Of a stretch of 64,000 nucleotides of DNA, positions 1 to 64,000 are shown one piece after another. Source of the DNA: a phage; sequence record PX421306.1. One strand, written 5' to 3'. Below the pieces are notes generated by a model. That model saw nothing but the letters and a program-made list of their open reading frames with translations, was not told where the DNA came from and did no database searches. The stretch's first letter is position 1. Every line of letters starts with the position of its first letter. A program made the position numbers and the translations under genes.

Positions 1-792
1 ATGGCAATTGTAGGTGTTCCTGGCTGGATTGGTGAATCTGCCGTGAATGAAACTGGACAACGTTGGATGGATGCTGCAATGAAAGCAGTTCGTGTTTCAG
101 TTCCTGGTTGGATGAGCTCAATGGCTGGACAATCTAAAGAAGTATATTACAGCATTGGTGCTAGCAATTCTTATAATAAAGATACGCTAATAAATTGGAT
201 AAAAGCCCAAGGAAGTACTCCTGTTGTTATTACTATTACAGGAAATATTGTTTCTCAATCTACTGGTGTTCCATGCTTAGATTTTCCTAGCTCATTAACT
301 AATGCATATGTTACCTTAAATATTAATAGTGGGGTTCATGTATTAGGTCGGGGAGGAAATGGCGGAAGTAACTCTGCTGGTGGAGCAGGAGGAACTGCAA
401 TAAATAACGGAATTGGAACTCGTTTAAGAATAAACAATAATGGTATTATTGGTGGCGGCGGCGGTGGCGGCGCAGGTGCTAGATACAATCCTTTCCCTCA
501 AATGGATATGAAATTTGGTGGCGGCGGAGGTCGTCCATTTGGCGCAGCTGGCGCAGCAGGAGGTGGCGCAGCTGCAGCATCTGCTGGTACAATTTCTGCT
601 CCCGGTAAAGGCACTGTTTCTGGGGTTCACCATGGAGGAGATGGTGGAGATTTAGGAGCTGCTGGCAAATCTTCATATATTCAAGGTGGTACTGGAGGAA
701 CTATTCACTCGGGTGGCGCAGCAGGTAAAGCTGTTACTGGTAATGCTCCAACTTGGACTAAAGTTGGTACAATATATGGTGCAAGAGTATAA
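1..792 (+). CDS. 38: Distal tail-fiber adhesin gp38 (T2/T6-type, glycine-rich motifs)
   Basis: 263-aa ORF starting at nt 1 (MAIVGVPGWIG...); poly-Gly blocks such as GGGGGGGAGA and GGGGGRPFGAAGAAGGG; lies immediately upstream of holin t as in T-even phages. Confidence 0.85.
   Translation: MAIVGVPGWIGESAVNETGQRWMDAAMKAVRVSVPGWMSSMAGQSKEVYYSIGASNSYNKDTLINWIKAQGSTPVVITITGNIVSQSTGVPCLDFPSSLTNAYVTLNINSGVHVLGRGGNGGSNSAGGAGGTAINNGIGTRLRINNNGIIGGGGGGGAGARYNPFPQMDMKFGGGGGRPFGAAGAAGGGAAAASAGTISAPGKGTVSGVHHGGDGGDLGAAGKSSYIQGGTGGTIHSGGAAGKAVTGNAPTWTKVGTIYGARV
451..480 (+). repeat. (GGY)n simple repeat encoding a poly-Gly motif inside gp38
   Basis: ggtggcggcggcggtggcggcgcaggtgct read directly; further GGN runs at 511-570. 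Confidence 0.8.
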
Positions 793-823
793 TTTTGAAT
801 AAATATCCTTAAAAGGAGGGTCT

Positions 824-1480
824 ATGGCAGCACCTAGAATATCATTTTCGCCCTCTGATATTCTGTTGGGTGTTCTAGATCGCTTGTTCAAAGATAACGC
901 TACCGGGAAGGTTCTTGCTTCCCGGGTAGCTGTCGTAATTCTTTTGTTTATAATGGCGATTGTTTGGTATAGGGGAGATAGTTTCTTTGAGTACTATAAG
1001 CAATCAAAGTATGAAACATACAGTGAAATTATTGAAAAGGAAAGAAATGCACGCTTTGAATCTGTCGCCCTGGAACAACTCCAGATAGTTCATATATCAT
1101 CTGAGGCAGACTTTAGTGCGGTGTATTCTTTCCGCCCTAAAAACTTAAACTATTTTGTTGATATTATAGCATATGAAGGAAGATTACCTTCAACAATAAC
1201 CGAAAAATCACTTGGAGGATATCCTGTTGATAAAACTATGGATGAATATACAGTTCATTTAAATGGACGTCATTATTATTCCAACTCAAAATTTGCTTTT
1301 TTACCGACTAAAAAGCCTACTCCCGAAATAAATTACATGTACAGTTGTCCATATTTTAATTTGGATAATATCTATGCTGGAACAATAACCATGTACTGGT
1401 ATAGAAATGATCATATAAGTAATGACCGCCTTGAATCAATATGTTCTCAGGCGGCCAGAATATTAGGAAGGGCTAAATAA
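824..1480 (+). CDS. t: Holin T
   Basis: 218 aa; near-identical to remembered T4 holin (MAAPRISFSPSDIL...RILGRAK); strong SD AAGGAGG upstream. Confidence 0.95.
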   Translation: MAAPRISFSPSDILLGVLDRLFKDNATGKVLASRVAVVILLFIMAIVWYRGDSFFEYYKQSKYETYSEIIEKERNARFESVALEQLQIVHISSEADFSAVYSFRPKNLNYFVDIIAYEGRLPSTITEKSLGGYPVDKTMDEYTVHLNGRHYYSNSKFAFLPTKKPTPEINYMYSCPYFNLDNIYAGTITMYWYRNDHISNDRLESICSQAARILGRAK

Positions 1481-2276: not shown

Positions 2277-2495
2277 TTATGTTTTGCGACTAAATTGTTC
2301 ATAGTGCTGAATTACCTCTCTTAAACATTTGCATGTGAATGAAAACTTTTTAGCTACACCACATTCAAATATATGTTCTCTTAAATCACGTGTGTCAGTA
2401 TATCCCATCTCAACGATAAAATGCCGTATTAGATTTTTATCTTTATCATTGAGAGAATTAAAATAATCAGATTTTGAATTAATTTCCCTGGCCAA
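2277..2495 (-). CDS. Hypothetical protein (72 aa, TTG start)
   Basis: ORF track; start codon is TTG preceded by AAGGTGA SD; arn-motA interval. Confidence 0.5.
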   Translation of the reverse strand: MAREINSKSDYFNSLNDKDKNLIRHFIVEMGYTDTRDLREHIFECGVAKKFSFTCKCLREVIQHYEQFSRKT

Positions 2496-2775
2496 ATTGA
2501 ATCACCTTCAGTTGACGTTTTAGCTCTTTTATCATCTCTTCGTTCATCGCAATATAAAGATCGCGTAAAGCAGGCTTTAGCATTCCATTTATTGGGGAAC
2601 TAAATGGACATACATAATCTTTTCCTACGAGCTTTTTAGTGAATTCCATATTACAGAACTGAAATGCCGGTTCATTGGCATAAATTCCCCATTTGGTTGA
2701 CATCATTTTATTGGCATATTCTAATGCCTGGATTTGATTCATAATTCCATCAATTTGAAACTTTTTAATATTCAT
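2479..2775 (-). CDS. Hypothetical protein (98 aa)
   Basis: ORF track; ATG confirmed; arn-motA interval. Confidence 0.7.
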   Translation of the reverse strand: MNIKKFQIDGIMNQIQALEYANKMMSTKWGIYANEPAFQFCNMEFTKKLVGKDYVCPFSSPINGMLKPALRDLYIAMNEEMIKELKRQLKVIQFGQGN

Positions 2776-3236
2776 TAGTAAAGGTCCTCAGAGTAAAGTT
2801 CTTTTTCACTACCACCACGTTCAATACGCACTTGTCCAGCATAAGTTGCAATAATCATTGCTTCTTCACGTGTCCAATAATTACTATATTGGTCAATAAA
2901 CCCTTGGTCATCATCACAAACTTGCTGAGTAACTAATTGGGGTTTAACTACATCTAAAACTGCTGCCATATCTTTAGAATAATGACGAGCACCCGGAATA
3001 ATAAGAGTTCGTCCATCTTTTAATCTAAAACGGTTGGCTGCGCAAACAATCCGTCGTTGGTATTTTTGGTTTTCATCCCAGTATGCAGACTGCCAACAGA
3101 TTTCCGGAACTTCTTTCAGAATATCTTCTTCTGTACATTTATAACCATGTGCTTTAAATTTTTGAACAAGACTTTCTGGAGTTTCACGAGATAAAGGAAC
3201 ATTCAGCATTTTTAAACGATTAATAAATGGATTCAT
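2775..3236 (-). CDS. Hypothetical protein (153 aa)
   Basis: ORF track; ATG confirmed; stop/start overlap with neighbours. Confidence 0.75.
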
Positions 3237-3562
3237 TTAAACCATCCTTTAATACGTTGCCACAAAGATTTCTGTTGAGCTTTGTTAACACCAATTGAAC
3301 GAATAACTGGTTGAGATTCCTGGAATTCTTTATAATCAGCAAGGTAAATTTCGTAAGCTGAATCTGTAAAGGAACTTATCGCTGCCATGAAATTATTGCG
3401 AATACCTACTGGAGCATCTTTACTTTCACGAATAATCATGTATTTACCAGTCTTAATCTTTACAATAGTTCCAAGATAAGCTCCGTGGTACCAGATATCC
3501 CACCCCTCTTGAGTGGGTTCTGCACAACGACGAAGTTCATTGATAATTTCTAACTTGTTCAT
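3233..3562 (-). CDS. Hypothetical protein (109 aa), motA.1 position
   Basis: ORF track; ATG confirmed; immediately downstream of motA. Confidence 0.75.
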
Positions 3563-3572
3563 TATTTATTCC

Positions 3573-4208
3573 TCACAGTTCAGATGCTACGGTGATTACA
3601 GCTTCAATGTTTTCTGCCGAGCGTTTAATGTCAAGATACACATTACCGTTTTTAGCGATTTTACATGACATTCCGATATCAGTAAATTTCTGAATATGAT
3701 GTTCCATCATTTTGTATCCAAAAATTCGCATATTTCCATTGTTGTTAATTTCAAAATTACGAATTCCGTGAGTGCGTTTTTCTAAAATAGCAAGATAGTT
3801 ACTACGATAAGTTTCAACCTTTTTAAGAACAAATCCATTTTCATCTAAAAGTTTTAACATGAAGTCTTTATCTTCTTCCATATCAGAAGTAATCTCGCGA
3901 GCTTTACGAGTTGCTCGTTTTTTCAGCAGTTCAGGAGCGTTTTCCTGCGCGTATAAAGTTGCCGCATTTGAAATAATATCCTGAGCTTCACCTGTAATGA
4001 TTAATCCATCACCAGATTTCTCTACCAGGCCTTTTTTAATCAATACCCCAATATTACTATTAACTACTGCATTACCTAAATCTGGATGCACCTCACGAAC
4101 TTCTGCAGCTGTAATGAAATCTTTCTTAGCAATGGTAATTAAAATCGCAGCAGTTTTTTCATTCAGAACATCGTTAGAAGCTTTGATGATGTAAGTTACT
4201 TTAGACAT
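3573..4208 (-). CDS. motA: Middle-transcription activator MotA
   Basis: 211 aa MSKVTYIIKASNDVLNEKTAAIL... matches remembered T4 MotA. Confidence 0.95.
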   Translation of the reverse strand: MSKVTYIIKASNDVLNEKTAAILITIAKKDFITAAEVREVHPDLGNAVVNSNIGVLIKKGLVEKSGDGLIITGEAQDIISNAATLYAQENAPELLKKRATRKAREITSDMEEDKDFMLKLLDENGFVLKKVETYRSNYLAILEKRTHGIRNFEINNNGNMRIFGYKMMEHHIQKFTDIGMSCKIAKNGNVYLDIKRSAENIEAVITVASEL

Positions 4209-12432: not shown

Positions 12433-14244
12433 GCTCATCCATTCTTTACGAAGGTCAGCATTATCTCCCATGAGCATTTCAAAAAGCTCTTTCCAATTCT
12501 CAGGAAGTTTAACAACATCATATACTGGATTTTGAATCATCTCACGATATTCAGATTTTTCCAAAGAGCCAAGTCCCTTAATATAACGGATGCTATGTTT
12601 AGGTAGAGCATCTTTGGCACTCTCATATTCAGCGACTGTATAAAACCATTCTTGTTTTTTACCGACCTGAGCGATGATTACAGGAGTTTTGACAAAGCGA
12701 ATTCTTCCTTGTTCAAACAGTTCTGGCCAATTACTAAAAAATCCGAGCAGAGAAGGATAAATGCTTCCTAGACCATCATGGTCAGCGTCAGTCATAATGG
12801 CAATATTATGATAATTTAAGTTTTCAGCCTTTTCACCAAGAACTAATCCAGTGATTGCGCAAATATCAAACAGTTCTTTATTTTTAAGCATATCAGCATA
12901 TGACATACCCCAACTGTTGAGAACTTTACCACGCAATGGATAACCGCCATGAAGTTCTTTATCACGAACATCAATAAGATATCCGATAGCAGAATCACCC
13001 TCAGTCAAGAAAAGAGTAGTATCAGCATCTTTACCGCAAAGATTCGCTTTAATATGTTTATGAACCTTAGCTTTAGAAGCCTTTTTAGCTGCTTTAGTTT
13101 CTGCTGCTTTTTCTGCCGCCAATTTACGAGCCAAGGCAGCTTCAATGATTGGCATTAAAATTGCTTCATTATTCAAAATAGCACGTGAAATCTTTTTAGC
13201 ATCAAGCTGAATATGACTGCGGATTTCACCGAATGGAGAAGTCAAACGCTCTTTAGTTTGAGAATCAAATCGCATGTTTTTCATATCACGAACAAACATA
13301 ACGATAGTCAAACATTCTTTAACACGTGCTTTAGTTACATCAATTTTGAATTTACGTTTGATTTGTGGAATAAGGTCTTCACAAATATCATCCATAACAC
13401 AGTCAATGTGATGACCACCATTCTTAGTATGAATGTTATTGACGTACGTTAATTGACGAAAACCATCTGGCGAACGACCAACCGCAATAGAACAATTTTC
13501 TTGTTCTTGAACAATAGCATGCTCATCATATTGACGTGCATATTTCTTAAAATTACCCTGAACCTTTTTACCATTAAAGGTAAATTGAATATCAGGATAA
13601 ACTACTGCAAGTGTCTGGAGACGATCCAGTGTAATGTCAAGATAAACTTGAGATAGCTCATTAGTTTCAAATGACATAAAATCAGGAATGAAAGTAACAC
13701 GTGTTCCTTTCCATTTTCCAGGAATAGTTTCCCATGATTTATTTTCCATGCCATTTGAACAACGAACCACAATATTATTTTGACCGTCGCCAGTTTCACC
13801 GACAAACATCACCGAAAAAATGTTAGTTAAACTAGAACCAACACCATTCATACCGCCAGTGACGCGTTCTTTGTCATCACCGAAGTTACCACCTGCTTTT
13901 GGAATAGTCCAGGCAGCAACAGGACCAGGAATTTCTTCACCAGTAGGTGTTTTAACCATCGCTTGTGGAATACCACGACCGTTATCTTCAACTGTTACTT
14001 GATTGTTTTTAATAGTAACATTAATTTTATTCGCGAATTTAAACTTAGTACGAATACCTTCATCTACTGAGTTATCAATAATTTCATCAATAAGCTTAAC
14101 AAGACCAGGTACATACTGAACACTTTCCCATTTACCAAACAGAAAGCGCTCATGCATTTCATTAGCAGAAGAACCAATGTACATGCCGCTACGCTTTTTG
14201 ATATGTTCAATATCGCTCAGAATTTTAATTTCATTCTTAATCAT
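12427..14244 (-). CDS. 39: DNA topoisomerase II large (ATPase) subunit gp39, uninterrupted
   Basis: 605 aa from ATG (track start is an upstream GTG); GyrB-like; covers what T4 splits into gene 39 plus gene 60. Confidence 0.95.
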   Translation of the reverse strand: MIKNEIKILSDIEHIKKRSGMYIGSSANEMHERFLFGKWESVQYVPGLVKLIDEIIDNSVDEGIRTKFKFANKINVTIKNNQVTVEDNGRGIPQAMVKTPTGEEIPGPVAAWTIPKAGGNFGDDKERVTGGMNGVGSSLTNIFSVMFVGETGDGQNNIVVRCSNGMENKSWETIPGKWKGTRVTFIPDFMSFETNELSQVYLDITLDRLQTLAVVYPDIQFTFNGKKVQGNFKKYARQYDEHAIVQEQENCSIAVGRSPDGFRQLTYVNNIHTKNGGHHIDCVMDDICEDLIPQIKRKFKIDVTKARVKECLTIVMFVRDMKNMRFDSQTKERLTSPFGEIRSHIQLDAKKISRAILNNEAILMPIIEAALARKLAAEKAAETKAAKKASKAKVHKHIKANLCGKDADTTLFLTEGDSAIGYLIDVRDKELHGGYPLRGKVLNSWGMSYADMLKNKELFDICAITGLVLGEKAENLNYHNIAIMTDADHDGLGSIYPSLLGFFSNWPELFEQGRIRFVKTPVIIAQVGKKQEWFYTVAEYESAKDALPKHSIRYIKGLGSLEKSEYREMIQNPVYDVVKLPENWKELFEMLMGDNADLRKEWMSQ

Positions 14245-14296
14245 CACTTATCCTCGTTTGGTTTCGGGAATATTATACTCCGGTAATCATAAAGCT

Positions 14297-14314
14297 AAAG
14301 GCCCGAAGGCCTTT
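14297..14314 (-). other. Stem-loop with CGAA/UUCG loop downstream of the lipoprotein gene
   Basis: aaaggcccgaaggccttt; weak U-tract. Confidence 0.5.
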
Positions 14315-14574
14315 TATTTAAAACGGATAGTCGAATCCTTGAAGAATAGACCAGAACATACGGTTCCTTCTACTTTCTGCCCGGTAGGTCCAATAGCACG
14401 AAATCCAGTATGCTGGAAATCATTTTCAGAGCAACCGAACCAATTATATCCAGTGATTTCAATATTAGTAAAACCACTTGAAGACAAAACTTTGGTTGCA
14501 TTATCAGCATCAGTACATCCTACTAAAGATACTGCTAATACTAATGCCGCGATAGAACGATTAACATATTTCAT
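14314..14574 (-). CDS. Putative lipoprotein (86 aa)
   Basis: Track ORF trimmed to ATG; signal peptide with lipobox LVGC. Confidence 0.65.
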   Translation of the reverse strand: MKYVNRSIAALVLAVSLVGCTDADNATKVLSSSGFTNIEITGYNWFGCSENDFQHTGFRAIGPTGQKVEGTVCSGLFFKDSTIRFK

Positions 14575-14578
14575 AATT

Positions 14579-14950
14579 TCACTCAAATTTAATGGCTTGA
14601 AGGAGACTAATAATTCTTAAGCGACTTCTTTCATCTTTAACTGTAAAAGAAAGAGGGTCACCAGATTTCATAGTGATGGTGCATCCAAAATCAAAATCTT
14701 CAGGAACTTCTTCGAAGAAGTCAAATTCTTCATCATAAATTAGAACATTACTCTGAAAACTGTGAAGAATTTTTCCATCATTTCCAGATGCTGTACTAAT
14801 CATTGTAACATTATGGCCTTTCATATCTTCAACGATAAATTCGCTTGTAGATATTACGGCATTAATAGAACCATTCCTATAAATAGAAGAAAGCAGATAT
14901 TTCTTTTCTTCACCTTCGCGAACACGATATTTCTTACCGATTTTAAACAT
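14579..14950 (-). CDS. Hypothetical protein (123 aa)
   Basis: Track ORF trimmed from GTG to ATG (MFKIGKKYRVREG...). Confidence 0.7.
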   Translation of the reverse strand: MFKIGKKYRVREGEEKKYLLSSIYRNGSINAVISTSEFIVEDMKGHNVTMISTASGNDGKILHSFQSNVLIYDEEFDFFEEVPEDFDFGCTITMKSGDPLSFTVKDERSRLRIISLLQAIKFE

Positions 14951-16585: not shown

Positions 16586-17065
16586 TTAAGCTTTACGAGG
16601 AGAAGCATAACGAGTGATTTCAGATTCTTCAACAACCCGGAAGTCACCTAAAAATACAATATTGTATAGCTTTTTACCGTCTTCAATCCATTGGTCTGTA
16701 ATGAAGCCACACATCCTATCAGTTTTACTTGGACCAGCGAAATCATCAATATAATCAAATTTTTCATCAGTTACAAATTCAACGCCTTTACACAACTGCC
16801 ATTTAAACTGTGCATTAGACTTAGTGGATTCAATTCCTTTAGCAGGAACAGCTTTCAAAAACGCAGATTCAAGAAATTTTGCACGAACATAGCCAAACTG
16901 AGGTTTAGACTTTCCATCTTTAGGAATGATACGCACTTTTACTTCAGAATCTTCATCTTTAACACCGTGTTTAAGCTGAATGCTTACAATTTCAACCAAT
17001 TTTCCTGCTGCTTTAGAACGGGATTTATCAGATACACGAGCAATTTCACCAATATTAATAATCAT
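16586..17065 (-). CDS. Hypothetical protein (159 aa), tandem paralog B (motB position)
   Basis: Paralog of 16157-16576; ATG confirmed. Confidence 0.8.
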   Translation of the reverse strand: MIINIGEIARVSDKSRSKAAGKLVEIVSIQLKHGVKDEDSEVKVRIIPKDGKSKPQFGYVRAKFLESAFLKAVPAKGIESTKSNAQFKWQLCKGVEFVTDEKFDYIDDFAGPSKTDRMCGFITDQWIEDGKKLYNIVFLGDFRVVEESEITRYASPRKA

Positions 17066-17103
17066 AGTTATCTCTCACTTGTTAAAAAGATTTTATACTC
17101 CAC

Positions 17104-17144
17104 AGGACCATTATACTCTGGTCCCAAGAGTTTGTAAACTATTA
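17104..17144 (-). promoter_or_regulatory. Early promoter
   Basis: Minus GTTTAC (plus 17134-17139), 18 bp, TATAAT (plus 17110-17115). Confidence 0.65.
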
Positions 17145-17234
17145 ATTCAAAATAGCTACCACTGCACTACGAGGTACTACGCTAAAATCACCTGCATGAA
17201 CAACGTTCAGAAGTTCAACACGATAAATTTTCAT
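17142..17234 (-). CDS. Small ORF (30 aa) between two promoters
   Basis: Hand-translated MKIYRVELLNVVHAGDFSVVPRSAVVAILN; SD GAGGATAAT. Confidence 0.3.
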   Translation of the reverse strand: MKIYRVELLNVVHAGDFSVVPRSAVVAILN

Positions 17235-17255
17235 TTTATTATCCTCAGTAGCTAT

Positions 17256-17296
17256 GGTGTTATAATACCATAACTAACCGAGGAAGTAAACAACTT
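17256..17296 (-). promoter_or_regulatory. Early promoter
   Basis: Minus GTTTAC (plus 17286-17291), 18 bp, TATTAT (plus 17262-17267). Confidence 0.6.
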
Positions 17297-17297
17297 T

Positions 17298-17981
17298 TTA
17301 TCGTTTTGTTGGAAGGGATAGAGGATCGCAATCTTCCTCTGACGGAGCATCTTCAAGACCCATAGCATATCGCAAAGCATACTTCATCATCAGGATGTCT
17401 TTCGCACAGTCATGAATAGAATCATGTGCAACGAATCCATCTAAAGTTCCCTTTGGAAGAGGACATGTGGTCATATCACGAACAAGCAAAAGTGCTTCAA
17501 TTCTAGTACGAATATCACGTTGATTCCAGAATTTACATGGTTCTAACTTAAATGTATCAAGCTCATTCTCAGAAACGCCATTAAGACGTTGAATATCGCG
17601 AATGAGATCGACTAAAATTGGAAAATCAAACGACATTCCACGGCACCAGCCTTGAGATTTCCAAGGATCGATGTTATGTGCATTGATGTAATCATTAAAT
17701 TTTGCAATACCATCGATAGTGCTTACATCTTCATCTGATGGCGCAATATTTTTTCGAGCTTCAGGAGACTGATTTTTCCACCATTCGATAGTGCTTTTAG
17801 TAAAAAGACGATGTCCTTTTTGGCTTTTTAAATCAAACTTGATTTTAATGCCGCGTGAAACTAATTCATCAAAGGATTCAACTACTTCTGGGTTAGGGTC
17901 AAAGGCAATAACAGCTAAGTCAATAACAGCTGCTTTTTCACCGCTTCCCATTGTTTCAAAATCTATAATAAAATCAAACAT
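17298..17981 (-). CDS. dexA: Exonuclease A DexA (DnaQ-like)
   Basis: 227 aa MFDFIIDFETMGSGEKAAVIDLAV...; length and position match T4 DexA. Confidence 0.9.
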   Translation of the reverse strand: MFDFIIDFETMGSGEKAAVIDLAVIAFDPNPEVVESFDELVSRGIKIKFDLKSQKGHRLFTKSTIEWWKNQSPEARKNIAPSDEDVSTIDGIAKFNDYINAHNIDPWKSQGWCRGMSFDFPILVDLIRDIQRLNGVSENELDTFKLEPCKFWNQRDIRTRIEALLLVRDMTTCPLPKGTLDGFVAHDSIHDCAKDILMMKYALRYAMGLEDAPSEEDCDPLSLPTKR

Positions 17982-20858: not shown

Positions 20859-20882
20859 ATTTTTCTCACGGACGGGTTAACT

Positions 20883-20923
20883 ACTTATACTATAACATTT
20901 TTACTTCAGCTTGTAAACAACTT
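20883..20923 (-). promoter_or_regulatory. Early promoter
   Basis: Minus GTTTACAAGCTGA... (plus 20913-20918), 18 bp, TATAGT (plus 20889-20894). Confidence 0.6.
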
Positions 20924-20974
20924 TATGAAAAATGCTTTAAAACTTTCATGGTATAATGAATCTAAGTCCTTCCA

Positions 20975-24647: not shown

Positions 24648-24857
24648 TTAAATTACATGACTATTTATAATAAATTCTTGCGGAACGCTAAAATATCCAA
24701 TTTTAGTTAATATAACAACATCACCGTTAATAACTACCGGAGAATAATCGGCTGGAGCATTAAACTTCCAATGAGCTCTAATATTATATCCATCAGAACC
24801 AAATGCTCGACTAGCCGGTCTCCCGGCTTTTTGCCATGCATAAAAATCAAATTTCAT
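24648..24857 (-). CDS. Hypothetical protein (69 aa)
   Basis: ORF track; ATG confirmed. Confidence 0.65.
   Translation of the reverse strand: MKFDFYAWQKAGRPASRAFGSDGYNIRAHWKFNAPADYSPVVINGDVVILTKIGYFSVPQEFIINSHVI
24658..24672 (-). promoter_or_regulatory. Late promoter (TATAAATA) for soc
   Basis: Minus-strand TATAAATA (plus 24662-24669) about 30 nt upstream of the soc ATG. Confidence 0.65.
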
Positions 24858-25054
24858 TTTGAATGCTCTATAATTAATTTTAAGGCTTCTTCATGCACCT
24901 TACCTAATTGTATATGTCCAGTTTTAATTGTGTAAGCTTTGTGGAGCTGATTAGATAAGAGCTCACATACGAGCTCCTTGTCATAATTTTTAAATAGCTG
25001 GTCAATACGTTTCTTGTGGGCTTTCTTAAGCTGGCGTTTATTTAAACGAGCCAT
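24854..25054 (-). CDS. Hypothetical basic protein (66 aa)
   Basis: ORF track; ATG confirmed; K/R-rich. Confidence 0.65.
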   Translation of the reverse strand: MARLNKRQLKKAHKKRIDQLFKNYDKELVCELLSNQLHKAYTIKTGHIQLGKVHEEALKLIIEHSK

Positions 25055-25572
25055 TAATAACCTCGGTCTTGACGAGCGAAGTTTTCAGCATTTTTCAGAT
25101 AATAAAGTTTAAAGATTTCTTCAGCAGTAAGGCCGAGACCTTGGAACATGTTCAGAACGAAATGAAGAATATCAATCATTTCGAATTTAATTTCCAACTG
25201 GTCTTGTGGAGACAAATCAGTAATTAGAGTTTCACGGCGTTCACCATGCTGTGACTTCCAAGGCTTCCATACAGCAGATGCATCTTTTTCACCATTGCTC
25301 ATACCGCCAAGAGATGTCAGAAGTTCACGGAATTCATCATCAATGTAATCTTTCTGATTACGCAGCCAATCAACAACTTCGCCTGCGGTAGCCAAATCAT
25401 CAGGATGACGGTTATATTCAGGTTTATCTTTAGCTAAACGAACCTGCAAAGATTTCTGCATATCAAGCATAACTTGCAGTGGGTCTTTTTCGTCACCGAG
25501 AATATCCCAGTATTCATTTTGAGCTTTATCAGCGCCTTCGATCAGTTGCGAACATTCATTAAAGTAAGCCAT
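25054..25572 (-). CDS. 56: dCTP pyrophosphatase gp56 (MazG-like)
   Basis: 171 aa from internal ATG MAYFNECSQLIEG... with SD GAAAGGAAAAATA; the track N-terminal extension was rejected. Confidence 0.9.
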   Translation of the reverse strand: MAYFNECSQLIEGADKAQNEYWDILGDEKDPLQVMLDMQKSLQVRLAKDKPEYNRHPDDLATAGEVVDWLRNQKDYIDDEFRELLTSLGGMSNGEKDASAVWKPWKSQHGERRETLITDLSPQDQLEIKFEMIDILHFVLNMFQGLGLTAEEIFKLYYLKNAENFARQDRGY

Positions 25573-25599
25573 TATTTTTCCTTTCAATTCATGGGTTAG

Positions 25600-25640
25600 T
25601 AGATTAATTATACAATAAATATATAAAGCAATAAGGAGGA
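25600..25640 (-). promoter_or_regulatory. MotA-dependent middle promoter for gene 56
   Basis: Minus ATTGCTTTA (MotA box; TGCTT = plus 25626-25630), 12 bp, TATAAT (plus 25607-25612). Confidence 0.55.
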
Positions 25641-25643
25641 CAT

Positions 25644-25844
25644 ATGGTACAAAAATTAATGGCACTTGTTAATGCCATAAAAGGTAATAAAAAACGTATA
25701 GCTTTTACTATTTCTGCTATGGTAGGAATTTTACTTTGGAATTTTGTTTTATCACCAATTGCTATTGCTCATGGTGTTAATATTCCAGTAATTACTCTTG
25801 ATACATTCGTAGATTTAGCATTTGCTTTAGTTGGGTTAATTTAA
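25644..25844 (+). CDS. Small hydrophobic protein (66 aa) on the opposite strand
   Basis: ATG with AAGGAGG SD 4 nt upstream; hydrophobic (MVQKLMALVNAIKGNKKRIAFTISAMVGILLWNFVLSPIAIAHG...); converges on gene 61 stop. Confidence 0.5.
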   Translation: MVQKLMALVNAIKGNKKRIAFTISAMVGILLWNFVLSPIAIAHGVNIPVITLDTFVDLAFALVGLI

Positions 25845-26869
25845 ATCTTAGCATATTTAAATAGCCGCATTTTAGCCATCAACCCCTGGGCAATATTATT
25901 TTTCATATATTCCATAATTTGTTCAGGGGTTGCACCTTCCTTTCTAATCATATCATTAACATCTTTTGATTTCCAGGGAGATTTATCCCAAAACATAACC
26001 CTTTCTCCTGCATCAACCAATTTAGTCATTCGTTTAATAGTGTCAGGATGACGAGGTTCATTATCTAAAACCCACACACGTCTATCTTTAAATGGAACAA
26101 TTTCTAGGTCTAATTGACCACCTGTAATAGCTATACCATTTTCAATAAAAAGTGAATCTATAGGTCCTTCTAGAACATATACATCACCATCTTTAACTCG
26201 TTCAACGCCATAGATTTTTGTTGCTTCAGGATAAGCTTTGATGGTGATATATTTTTGAGGAGCATCTTTCTTTAATGCACGTCCTTGAAAAGACTCAGCT
26301 TTTCCATTAGCATTATAAATTGGAATAACAAGACGAGGCTCAGGTATTTCCTTTTTGTATGTTCCTGGTGCTATGCTATTAACTAATTTAGGCCATTCGG
26401 TTGTAAACCAAAGATATTTCCATTTATCCTTTGGAATACAGCGAGCTTTTACATATTTTATAATTGGATGGTCTTCCGCCAATTTATCTAATCTAATGCA
26501 TGACGGAAGAGATTTAATTATTTTCTTCTCAGGTTGTTTAGGAAGTTCTTTAGGTTTTTCTACTGGACGACTTTTACCTTTTTCTTTTCTTATTTCAAAG
26601 ATATACTCACGATATAAATCGGGTTCAAACTCCTTTAAATATATTCCGATTGGTGCATGATAGTTGCAGTTATAACAATGAATATTTCCTTCATTATTAT
26701 CGCCATAATACCATCCACGGGCTTTATTTTGGTCGGTTTTTGAATCTCCACAAACAGGGCATCTAAACCGCAATTTAAAAGTTGAACTATTATTTACTTG
26801 TGTGAATTTAGGTAAATGAGCTAATGCACGATATGCAAACTCATTATCAATCCAAGGTATTGATGACAT
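25841..26869 (-). CDS. 61: DNA primase gp61
   Basis: 342 aa; zinc-ribbon CPVCGD...CYNC; length and position match T4 gp61. Confidence 0.95.
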   Translation of the reverse strand: MSSIPWIDNEFAYRALAHLPKFTQVNNSSTFKLRFRCPVCGDSKTDQNKARGWYYGDNNEGNIHCYNCNYHAPIGIYLKEFEPDLYREYIFEIRKEKGKSRPVEKPKELPKQPEKKIIKSLPSCIRLDKLAEDHPIIKYVKARCIPKDKWKYLWFTTEWPKLVNSIAPGTYKKEIPEPRLVIPIYNANGKAESFQGRALKKDAPQKYITIKAYPEATKIYGVERVKDGDVYVLEGPIDSLFIENGIAITGGQLDLEIVPFKDRRVWVLDNEPRHPDTIKRMTKLVDAGERVMFWDKSPWKSKDVNDMIRKEGATPEQIMEYMKNNIAQGLMAKMRLFKYAKI

Positions 26870-28060: not shown

Positions 28061-28243
28061 TCATTCTTCTCCTCCTTCATGTTGATGAACATATTCTTTT
28101 TCAAGTCTAGAGCACAAGTTTTCATATTCAACTAATAAAAATGAATCAAGTGCGTTATTTCTATGCTGACACCGTTCTTGTAAAGAATCCATCTCTGAGC
28201 GTTGTTCTTGTGTTAATAATTGATAACCTGATACTTTAGACAT
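28061..28243 (-). CDS. Hypothetical protein (60 aa), 61.4 position
   Basis: Track ORF trimmed to second ATG with SD GGAGAACAAA. Confidence 0.6.
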   Translation of the reverse strand: MSKVSGYQLLTQEQRSEMDSLQERCQHRNNALDSFLLVEYENLCSRLEKEYVHQHEGGEE

Positions 28244-28273
28244 TTTGTTCTCCATTTACTCGTTTGTTTTGAT

Positions 28274-28314
28274 AGGTCTATAATAACATGTTTAAAACAA
28301 AAGTAAACTATTTT
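28274..28314 (-). promoter_or_regulatory. Early promoter
   Basis: Minus GTTTAC (plus 28303-28308), 17 bp, TATTAT (plus 28280-28285). Confidence 0.55.
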
Positions 28315-28353
28315 ATTTCCTCAAGTTCGTTAATCAATAAAAGTTCTCTGACG

Positions 28354-28563
28354 CTAAAAACAAAAAAAAAATGTGTTCCCATCAACAAGAGCATGACCGC
28401 TAATAGAACACCCTCTGCGGAATTTAGAAACTTCACAATCTAGAACTGTAAAGGGTTTTAATCCTATGACTTTAGCTGTGCGTCTATTCAGTTCACAACC
28501 ACTCGCGAATTTTTCCAAATCTTCTTCTGATTTAAACTGATATTCTCTATTAACTAGCATCAT
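28354..28563 (-). CDS. Hypothetical protein (69 aa)
   Basis: ORF track; ATG confirmed. Confidence 0.65.
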   Translation of the reverse strand: MMLVNREYQFKSEEDLEKFASGCELNRRTAKVIGLKPFTVLDCEVSKFRRGCSISGHALVDGNTFFFCF

Positions 28564-28588
28564 TTTCTTTTCTCCGCGATTAGCTGAT

Positions 28589-28629
28589 AGAATTACTATA
28601 ACACAACTCTATCAGCTTGTAAACTACTA
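28589..28629 (-). promoter_or_regulatory. Early promoter
   Basis: Minus GTTTACAAGCTGA (plus 28619-28624), 18 bp, TATAGT (plus 28595-28600). Confidence 0.6.
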
Positions 28630-28884
28630 TTTTAAAACTTCTGTATAATCACATGTTACAAACTGTTTCTCTAACTTGACGATTTTACGAAAGTATCTTT
28701 TGCATTGGCGAATCTGCCGCTTTGTAGGGCGCACAGCAAATTTAATAAATTCCACTCGACCAAATGGAGGACTTTCTTCTGCTGGAATATCTAACACCAA
28801 TTCCCACGTATCTGCAACAAGTGCTTTGAATTGAGTATTTTTCCTGACATTATACGGAGTAGGTTTAAATAAAACAATATGCAT
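28627..28884 (-). CDS. Hypothetical protein (85 aa)
   Basis: Track ORF trimmed to ATG with SD GAGGATAAT; avoids overlap with the upstream gene (TAATATG junction). Confidence 0.6.
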   Translation of the reverse strand: MHIVLFKPTPYNVRKNTQFKALVADTWELVLDIPAEESPPFGRVEFIKFAVRPTKRQIRQCKRYFRKIVKLEKQFVTCDYTEVLK

Positions 28885-28885
28885 A

Positions 28886-29068
28886 TTATCCTCGGCAATC
28901 CACTTCACATACTTTCTTGTCATCAATGAAAGCTTTAACTAATGCTTTATTAACTTCAGCATATTGAGTAGTAGCCCATTGAACGTCATCTTTCATCATT
29001 GTGATTTCTTTAGTAAACATGCTTTCATTCTTAAACCACCCCATAAAAACTACTTTTACCAATTCCAT
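28886..29068 (-). CDS. dmd: Dmd-like antitoxin (discriminator of mRNA degradation), 60 aa
   Basis: MELVKVVFMGWFKNESMFTKEITMMKDDVQW...; 60 aa immediately downstream of gene 41 as in T4; SD GGAG; identity from memory. Confidence 0.6.
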   Translation of the reverse strand: MELVKVVFMGWFKNESMFTKEITMMKDDVQWATTQYAEVNKALVKAFIDDKKVCEVDCRG

Positions 29069-63350: not shown

Positions 63351-63881
63351 TCACTTTGAAATCATAGTTGGAATGACAGAATCAAGATAAGTCTTTAATA
63401 AAACAGCTTCTTCTTTGTTTAATACAACAACATTAACATCATTTACCGATTGACGAATAGTTAAGACATCTCCTTCTTCGTAACACTTTGATACATTTAA
63501 AACAGTTTCATAATTTTGATTACAAGCGTTAGTAATAATAGCATTGCAATTTTTAAACCATTTTAAACCATGTTTTCTTTCGTTAGAATAATAAAAATAT
63601 TTAATTTTAGTTATAAAATTATCCCAATTATTAATTGATAAGCATATTGACTCGCTTTCAATGTTAAATCCTGGGCATAAAGAATAGAAATGAATTTTAT
63701 GCTCATCATTAATGCTTACAATTTTATCAGTATAAGGTTTTTCAATTTGGGTTAAATGAATAATTTCACTAGGTGTAAAATACAGCATATCGTCTTCTTG
63801 CGTCAAACGATACATATTATTTACTTTTTCTATAGCCAATTCACCAAAAAGTGAACTAACTTCTAGTACTAATCGTTTCAT
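63351..63881 (-). CDS. Hypothetical protein (176 aa), tandem paralog
   Basis: Track ORF trimmed to ATG MKRLVLEV with SD AAGGA; paralog of 62823-63344. Confidence 0.75.
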   Translation of the reverse strand: MKRLVLEVSSLFGELAIEKVNNMYRLTQEDDMLYFTPSEIIHLTQIEKPYTDKIVSINDEHKIHFYSLCPGFNIESESICLSINNWDNFITKIKYFYYSNERKHGLKWFKNCNAIITNACNQNYETVLNVSKCYEEGDVLTIRQSVNDVNVVVLNKEEAVLLKTYLDSVIPTMISK

Positions 63882-63882
63882 A

Positions 63883-64000
63883 TTAATCCTTTTTATTGGC
63901 ATGAATTTTTTCTAAAATTTTAGAGTATTCCTTTGTATCAGATTTACGCACAATCGATACACTATAAGGCATACTATCAGTGTCTTTTATAAAGCGTTCC
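63883..64000 (-). CDS. Partial CDS (C-terminal 38 codons; gene continues beyond the window)
   Basis: Open frame to the window edge, ending ...EKIHANKKD*; stop sits in a TAATATG junction with the downstream ATG. Confidence 0.4.
   Translation of the reverse strand, partial: ERFIKDTDSMPYSVSIVRKSDTKEYSKILEKIHANKKD

Follow-up and report, generated by a model that had tools for sequence, protein, structure and literature searches.

Genes 56 and 61 both lie on the minus strand of the window, by which we mean the whole 64,000-nucleotide stretch of phage DNA analyzed, and are separated by 25573..25840, an interval of 268 bp that agrees with the roughly 270 bp given in the first-pass annotation of the locus. 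Upstream of gene 61, we found genes 61.1, 61.2, sp, and dmd in the T4-like order. The surrounding segment (25400..26100) shares 99.6% identity with Shigella phage SH-1 and Escherichia phage KFS-EC3 and matches 551 phage records, nearly all of them Tequatrovirus. The interval is the T6-type 56–61 junction of a Tequatrovirus, without the DNA adenine methyltransferase gene dam, and it comprises 71 bp of divergent control DNA and a single genuine gene, a 66-aa ORF on the plus strand (Table 1). The locus is ordinary and largely annotated already. An assembly artefact that a corrected assembly would undo by placing dam at this position was considered and rejected, the same contiguous layout being present in 323 independent phage records. 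An Rfam scan of 25300..26100 returned no RNA family.

Table 1. Features of the gene 56–61 locus, with positions numbered along the window
Feature	Position	Strand	Basis and details
Gene 56 (dCTPase/dUTPase), 172 aa	25054..25572	−	phrog_173, E = 1.5e-46; Pfam dUTPase_2; aligns with T4 gp56
Gene 56 ribosome-binding site AAGGA, 6 nt before ATG	25579..25583	−	Read from sequence; position as the Shine–Dalgarno annotated in T4 X01416
Gene 56 MotA-dependent middle promoter	25607..25633	−	TATTGCTTTA (25633→25624), 11-nt spacer, −10 TATAAT (25612→25607)
Late-promoter-like element AATAAATA	25614..25621	+	7/8 match to TATAAATA; 22 nt before ORF ATG
AAGGAGG ribosome-binding site of the 66-aa ORF, 4 nt before ATG	25633..25639	+	Sequence; first base overlaps the opposite-strand MotA box
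66-aa gene for a predicted small membrane protein (phrog_2024; "RB32ORF030w")	25644..25844	+	phrog_2024, E = 5.4e-31
Terminator-like hairpin, 8 bp (25678→25659), then UAAUUUUUGU	25649..25678	−	Pattern scan; MFE −10 kcal/mol, z = −2.05
Gene 61 (DNA primase), 342 aa	25841..26869	−	phrog_47, E = 4.7e-105; nearly identical to T4 gp61

The middle promoter that the first-pass annotation had assigned to gene 56 is a homolog of T4 P(M)16.53, whose mot-box and −10 element are annotated in X01416. As a MotA promoter, we counted the sequence (a/t)(a/t)(a/t)TGCTT(t/c)A centered near −30 and 11–13 bp from a sigma-70 −10 element, and the gene 56 site shows the box TATTGCTTTA followed after 11 nt by TATAAT. 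The pattern TGCTTYA-N10-13-TAWAAT occurs eight times in the window against 0.26 expected from shuffling, with seven of the eight on the minus strand and the gene 56 site among them. In the T4 annotation, the transcript from the gene 56 middle promoter is the oriA primer.

On the other strand, the hydrophobic 66-aa ORF and its AAGGAGG signal were found as first described, as was its convergent arrangement with gene 61: the two stop codons overlap within TTAA. The description of the ORF as the sole plus-strand gene candidate in the early block also holds. Between 1481 and 63902, it is the only credible plus-strand ORF that starts with ATG and has at least 50 aa, and a second plus-strand ORF, 14177..14620, is antisense to a 605-aa gene.

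Absence and Distribution of dam

As originally noted, no dam gene lies between genes 56 and 61, and none was found across the rest of the window: a tblastn search of the 64 kb with T4 Dam gave a best E value of 0.44, and no plausible long ORF contains a DPPY-type motif ([DNS]PP[YFW]). Taking homology to T4 Dam together with a DPPY motif as the mark of Dam/MethyltransfD12 membership, we found no member in the window. The window spans no more than 64 kb of the genome, and Dam homologs occur at other coordinates in more distant T4-like phages; a Dam-like methyltransferase that had changed only its position would be compatible with both. We consider this very improbable: besides the window, the remaining ~104 kb of KFS-EC3, the closest complete genome and 99.6% identical over the 56–61 locus, contains no match (best tblastn E = 1.0). 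Without a phage Dam, GATC sites are predicted to be methylated by the host enzyme only.

Among the 551 related records, 323 have the dam-less contiguous 56–ORF–61 layout, T6 included, while T4 dam DNA was found in 184 phage records and Dam protein at ≥90% identity in 182. The dam-less state is the majority, covering about two thirds of the relatives. The gene dam is an optional cassette of T-even phages, and its presence or absence is a common and already noted polymorphism; a 2026 paper (PMC13390438) describes a Dam-like gene as common to T4 and only some Tequatroviruses. Other cassettes occupy the same junctions elsewhere: Klebsiella phage Marfa has LprI-like and MazG-like genes, and Yersinia phage P8 has an HNH endonuclease cassette between the ORF and gene 61.

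The alignment with T4 and T6 gave a divided answer to the proposal that dam had been lost here or replaced by the small ORF. T6 (NC_054907) has the same dam-less layout and junction sequence as the window, differing in that ATT stands for the ATG of the ORF and the annotated start is Met6. The T4 56–dam–61 region (NC_000866 16270..18963; X01416, Macdonald and Mosig) is colinear and ≥90% identical in gene 56, the MotA promoter, the ORF, and gene 61 but is longer by 878 bp, which are located between the MotA box and the ribosome-binding site of the ORF. In the alignment, this T4-specific insert is flanked directly by AAGCAAT, which complements the MotA box, and by AAGGAGG; it contains dam, the early promoter region of dam, and T4's own copy of ATAAATA. 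In NC_000866, dam is at 16846..17625 and the reverse coding of gene 61 ends the gap at 17935, leaving 309 bp unannotated between the two. That gap holds an ORF, 17738..17938 (+), with 62 of 66 residues the same as in the window (94%), four conservative differences, an identical AAGGAGG, and a matching overlap with the stop of gene 61.

The coexistence of dam and the ORF in T4 shows that the small ORF is no replacement for dam. The idea of an ancestral dam that was lost and supplanted by a new small opposite-strand membrane ORF draws on the absence of dam here and its presence at the corresponding site in T4 and T2; we give it next to no weight, as the dam-carrying genomes L020 and L021 likewise keep the ORF, and the ORF has the same position in dam-less outgroups, down to ~41–52% identity.

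In all outgroups examined, dam is missing at this locus: HX01 (Mosigvirus), VR26 (Gaprivervirus), Yersinia phage P8, and the metagenomic contigs L003, L006, and L027. Judging from these distant relatives, the dam-less state is more likely to be ancestral at this site, and a loss of dam in the window lineage is not supported. In T4 and T2, dam has the MotA box of the gene 56 promoter on one side and the upstream signals of the small ORF on the other; its placement in T4, with the MotA box and ATAAATA as neighbors, looks like an insertion. A derivation of the window junction from the T4 type by a single deletion fails, ATAAATA and the MotA box being in the opposite order, and within Tequatrovirus dam may have been either gained or lost.

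Conservation of the 66-aa ORF

The ORF matches phrog_2024 over its full length (residues 2–66 against profile positions 1–65 of 65). The proteins AEK12294.1 of ime09 and YP_010065403.1 of PhiZZ6, which are identical to it or at least 90% so, have 66 aa and the same position and orientation, and represent the same gene. The ORF has already been deposited hundreds of times as a hypothetical protein; the exact protein of the window is among these deposits (e.g., AEK12294.1) and was seen on 100 contigs, one record labeling it RB32ORF030w. Stray records carry the labels "holin," "putative head morphogenesis protein," and "putative membrane protein," which we set aside as automatic and without visible support. 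The ORF is missing from the curated T4 records NC_000866, MT984581, X01416, and K03113, and was called as phrog 2024 in an automatic annotation of a T4 mutant. Our search of the literature on T4 ribosome profiling, small ORFs, RB32ORF names, and T6/Dam found nothing on the 66-aa ORF.

A viral-contig scan yielded only eight loci, and population counts were therefore taken from INPHARED searches. Using a 52%-identical metagenomic homolog as the tblastn query, we found homologs in 693 phage records; among the matches listed, the ORF is adjacent or close to the primase gene and on the strand opposite to it. Position and strand are the same at 68%, 52%, and ~41–49% identity, and the ORF is tail-to-tail with gene 61 in T4, T6, HX01, Marfa, and the metagenomic L003, L006, and L027. 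In VR26, a tandem paralog separates the ORF from gene 61; in Yersinia phage P8, a small ORF and the HNH endonuclease gene do. Whether dam is there or not, the ORF is found in Tequatrovirus, Mosigvirus, Gaprivervirus, and T4-like phages that are more distant. On this comparative evidence, we regard it as a resident gene beside gene 61 that is independent of dam and older than the dam polymorphism.

The substitution pattern is that of a coding sequence under constraint. Between genera, pairwise Nei–Gojobori estimates gave pS of 0.7–0.8 (saturated) versus pN of 0.25–0.35, and dN/dS was 0.17–0.3 (about 0.2) wherever dS was computable. Orthologs have 65–67 aa throughout, and (A)AGGAG(G) is kept in all those examined. 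Two subfamilies can be told apart, the second of which (MGTLFYQIWKL...) occurs alone in Klebsiella phages and as the tandem second copy in VR26; M1, W32, N33, P38, G44, and P48 are invariant across both. A profile search run exhaustively against 1.84 billion representative proteins returned 17 proteins of 33–82 aa. The 11 distant members that we inspected (57–82 aa) share the core [WY]N[FYW]xxxPxAxxxGxxLPxxxx[ED], and one of them, P0111, lies again between genes 56 and 61 on a contig of a more distant T4-like phage. Judged by its sequence conservation, the 66-aa ORF is a conserved protein-coding gene throughout the T-even group, T4 included. This gene, which is clearly subject to purifying selection and is preceded by a conserved late-promoter motif, is absent from the curated T4 reference annotations (NC_000866 and MT984581). 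Truncated or frameshifted alleles (P0026 and P0027), together with the ATT start of T6, suggest that the gene is dispensable rather than essential.

The stretch could instead be conserved for its DNA or RNA, as the 3′ UTR or terminator of gene 61 and as promoter DNA for gene 56 or dam, with the ORF left untranslated. The curated T4 annotations treat the gap as noncoding, and a minus-strand terminator-like hairpin with a U-run lies inside the ORF. The hairpin stem has 8 bp with three GC pairs, is located downstream of gene 61, ~160 nt past its stop, and is embedded in codons 2–12 of the ORF; it is identical in T4 and T6, and "terminator" features are annotated at the site in fPS-65, fPS-2, and SA20RB. 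It is, however, not conserved beyond Tequatrovirus and contig L003: the latter has a hairpin of different sequence followed by U5, and other genera show a weak one or none. An untranslated ORF is hardly credible to us given that synonymous sites are saturated while amino acid change is restrained, that the frame, the length of 65–67 aa, the strong Shine–Dalgarno, and six invariant residues persist in both subfamilies, and that non-T4 phages without an adjacent gene 61 keep the ORF. If the hairpin works, the 3′ end of the gene 61 transcript would be a complete antisense of the ORF. A pattern scan for a plus-strand terminator after the ORF found none.

A Late-Promoter-Like Element Upstream of the ORF

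As the criterion for a late (gp55) promoter, we used TATAAATA located closely upstream of a gene, at about −13 to −6. The element upstream of the ORF, AATAAATA, matches in seven of eight positions, and its ATAAATA core (25615..25621) sits inside the spacer of the opposite-strand middle promoter. The single mismatch is an A at −13, where T is poorly conserved and either A or T is found in T4-like phages (Nolan et al. 2006, PMC1524935).

The match exceeds what chance would give and is conserved. On both strands of the window, ATAAATA occurs 9 times versus 39 ± 6 in shuffles, a four-fold depletion, and four of the nine sites lie 18–31 nt upstream of an ATG: those of the holin gene t, soc, gene 49, and the 66-aa ORF. 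The first three genes have known late promoters, and the t and gene 49 sites in the window likewise read AATAAATA. In two comparisons, 7 of 8 and 15 of 16 first-copy orthologs of the ORF have ATAAATA 14–22 nt upstream of the ATG. The ortholog on contig L006 is without ATAAATA, and in T6, where the first ATG is now ATT, the distance from ATAAATA to the next ATG is 37 nt.

The strongest argument that ATAAATA serves the ORF is that its distance is kept through rearrangements. The DNA upstream of ATAAATA is nonhomologous between lineages, and the motif is found at the right distance in the T4 type, the window type, Mosigvirus, Gaprivervirus, L003, L027, and Marfa, the Marfa copy being a perfect TATAAATA. 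The outgroups are arranged as gene 56 −10, spacer, MotA box, ATAAATA, and Shine–Dalgarno; in the window type, ATAAATA is within the middle-promoter spacer, and in T4, dam separates the MotA box from ATAAATA. The late element has been retained at the proper spacing from the ORF through several such rearrangements, and judged by this motif, the ORF is probably expressed late.

Alternatively, the ORF could be a real gene under an early or middle sigma-70-type promoter that encodes a membrane protein of superinfection exclusion or immunity comparable to Imm and Sp, T4 small membrane proteins that act in exclusion. The ORF lies in the early region, only a few genes from sp. We nevertheless regard this as unlikely. 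The early and middle transcription of the block is on the other strand, and the conserved upstream element is ATAAATA rather than a −35/−10 pair or a MotA box. Near the ORF, we found no plus-strand sigma-70-like promoter, the sole match of a scan for one lying ~225 nt upstream, inside gene 56.

With late expression of the ORF, the locus would work as follows. The gp55-RNA polymerase would transcribe the ORF late from AATAAATA, and the late and MotA promoters, occupying the same DNA, would be used at different times. The late ORF transcript would run antisense into gene 61, and transcripts of gene 61 would cross the whole ORF in antisense, up to the terminator-like hairpin near the 5′ end of the ORF. 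The 71-bp region would then combine, in the same DNA, a MotA middle promoter on one strand and a putative late promoter on the other.

Predicted Product and Possible Function

The product has two hydrophobic segments, residues 19–42 and 47–66, with a mean Kyte–Doolittle value of ~2.0, and a basic, amphipathic N terminus (K4, K13, K16, K17, and R18). An AlphaFold2 model built from a 14-sequence alignment (pLDDT 80.5) has helices at 2–12, 16–42, and 52–63. The modeled C-terminal helix has 12 residues, and both a one-TM and a hairpin topology fit. These models predict a small protein of the inner membrane. Our overall reading, in which we have considerable confidence, is of a dam-less T6-type junction with a conserved, probably late gene for a predicted membrane protein that is not a replacement for dam.

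The product would insert in the inner membrane with its basic N terminus (K13, K16, K17, and R18) in the cytoplasm, an orientation that follows from the positive-inside rule. One long TM helix (~16–42) would bear the invariant W32–N33 and P38, to be followed by G44, P48, the acidic D53, which is conserved in most of the family, and a short amphipathic C-terminal helix. The Trp–Asn pair in the long helix, the Pro/Gly/Pro landmarks, and acidic residue 53 hint at helices that pack specifically and do more than anchor the protein. A reasonable conjecture, for and against which we see about equal weight, is that the protein is a small membrane modulator acting via helix–helix contacts through its in-membrane Asn, and that it oligomerizes or binds a larger phage or host membrane protein. 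That it serves to control lysis or envelope events as infection ends is a tentative suggestion and rather less probable.

The holins and antiholins (class II/pinholin S21; T4 T/RI) share with the ORF product the small size, the membrane helices, and the probable late expression. They differ in having a charged C terminus, whereas here the charge is N-terminal (K13–R18) and the C terminus reads ...AFALVGLI. No holin family profile or fold was found in Pfam, NCBIfam, or BFVD, and the neighbors of the ORF in T4-like phages are genes 56 and 61; it is nowhere near e, t, rI, or the spanins. With no profile match, a hydrophobic C terminus, and no lysis-gene neighbors in T4-like phages, the protein lacks the holin features examined. 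Scans of the ORF and its distant relatives against Pfam, NCBIfam, and PADLOC gave nothing usable, and a BFVD fold search with the AlphaFold2 model returned the protein's own family only.

The family reaches beyond the T4-like phages. Three distant members, P0115, P0117, and P0119, come from outside this group and have no gene 61 next door; P0119 matches phrog_2024 with an E value of 1.3e-9, and in a tblastn search against the phage collection, it gave no match. All three adjoin a conserved pair of uncharacterized proteins, a basic one of ~180 aa and another of ~105 aa. This module follows the tail genes, in a region that also encodes proteins having a coiled coil and an N-terminal TM segment, as well as a T4-type lysozyme; P0119 is three genes upstream of the lysozyme gene. 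By analogy with these few distant relatives, the lysozyme neighborhood is compatible with an envelope role late in infection. A more speculative proposal, which we consider doubtful as a whole, is that the conserved late inner-membrane protein may be an unrecognized T-even player in lysis, lysis inhibition, or envelope control and that the locus may act as a temporal switch, since the promoter of the ORF and the oriA/gene 56 middle promoter are interleaved and the ORF mRNA would be fully complementary to the primase transcript at its 3′ end. The module near lysozyme genes offers a starting point for finding the function, and the 180-aa neighbor of P0119 matches one unannotated phage gene.

Subfamilies and Insertions Around the 66-aa ORF

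The family of the 66-aa ORF splits into two subfamilies, both of which are present, as a tandem pair, in the Gaprivervirus VR26. Klebsiella T4-like phages such as Marfa carry the second subfamily only, and a perfect TATAAATA precedes the ORF by 19 nt. The junctions flanking the ORF are a hot spot for insertions: in T4 and T2 the neighboring junction is occupied by dam, in Marfa the junction with gene 56 holds two genes, and in Yersinia phage P8 the junction with gene 61 holds an HNH endonuclease. In T6 (NC_054907), ATT takes the place of the ATG that begins the ORF in all other Tequatroviruses examined. The RefSeq start of the T6 ORF is Met6, which lacks a ribosome-binding site, and the ATT may be a down-mutation that arose naturally, or may itself serve as an AUU start codon.

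Coordinates of features in the window and in the compared loci
Feature	Sequence	Position
Tandem pair, both subfamilies	L009 (VR26)	2501..2698 and 2707..2907
Second-subfamily ORF alone	L025 (Marfa)	4001..4201
LprI-like (252 aa) and MazG-like (93 aa) genes, gene 56/ORF junction	L025 (Marfa)	2871..3972
HNH endonuclease, ORF/gene 61 junction	L010 (P8)	2786..3553
ATT at the ORF start	L011 (T6)	2492..2494
ATAAATA sites	Window	400, 799, 3569, 14879, 24668, 25615, 27236, 52611, 52647
TGCTTTA-N12-TATAAT	Window	20933..20957 (+)
Two soc.2-like ORFs (69 and 66 aa)	Window	24648..25054 (-)
Three ORFs (64, 69, 98 aa)	Window	28061..28923 (-)
Distant-relative module	L030	5001..6610
Distant-relative module	L034	5001..6082
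Distant-relative module	L033	3980..5213
P0118 and RelA/SpoT-domain gene	L035 (2-kb contig)	129..1383

Promoter Motifs in the Window

The late-promoter heptamer ATAAATA is depleted four-fold in the window (9 copies vs. 39 ± 6 expected), and four of the nine copies stand before t, soc, gene 49, and the 66-aa ORF. The heptamer can therefore be used as a marker of late genes in this phage genome. Separately, a perfect MotA-type middle-promoter pattern lies on the plus strand of the intergenic gap 20859..20974, inside a block that otherwise runs entirely on the minus strand; all seven of the remaining matches in the window are minus-strand.

Distant Relatives Outside T4-Like Phages

In non-T4 phages and prophages, distant members of the family occur in a conserved module together with two further proteins: one is basic and ~180 aa long, the other is ~105 aa long and has the C-terminal end ...KGYRMKGYFFQ. 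Near the module lie a T4-type lysozyme and a coiled-coil protein whose N-terminus carries a TM segment. For one distant homologue, P0118 (59 aa), the next gene downstream encodes a 352-aa RelA/SpoT-domain protein.

Differences from KFS-EC3 and T4

The final 400 bases (63601..64000) of the window had no match at E < 1e-20 in the portions of KFS-EC3, the closest complete genome, that were compared, so this phage and KFS-EC3 differ near this end of the window. The interval between soc and gene 56, which in T4 contains the homing endonuclease gene segF, is occupied in this phage by two small soc.2-like ORFs; between sp and dmd, this phage has three small ORFs, whereas only 61.4 is annotated there in T4.
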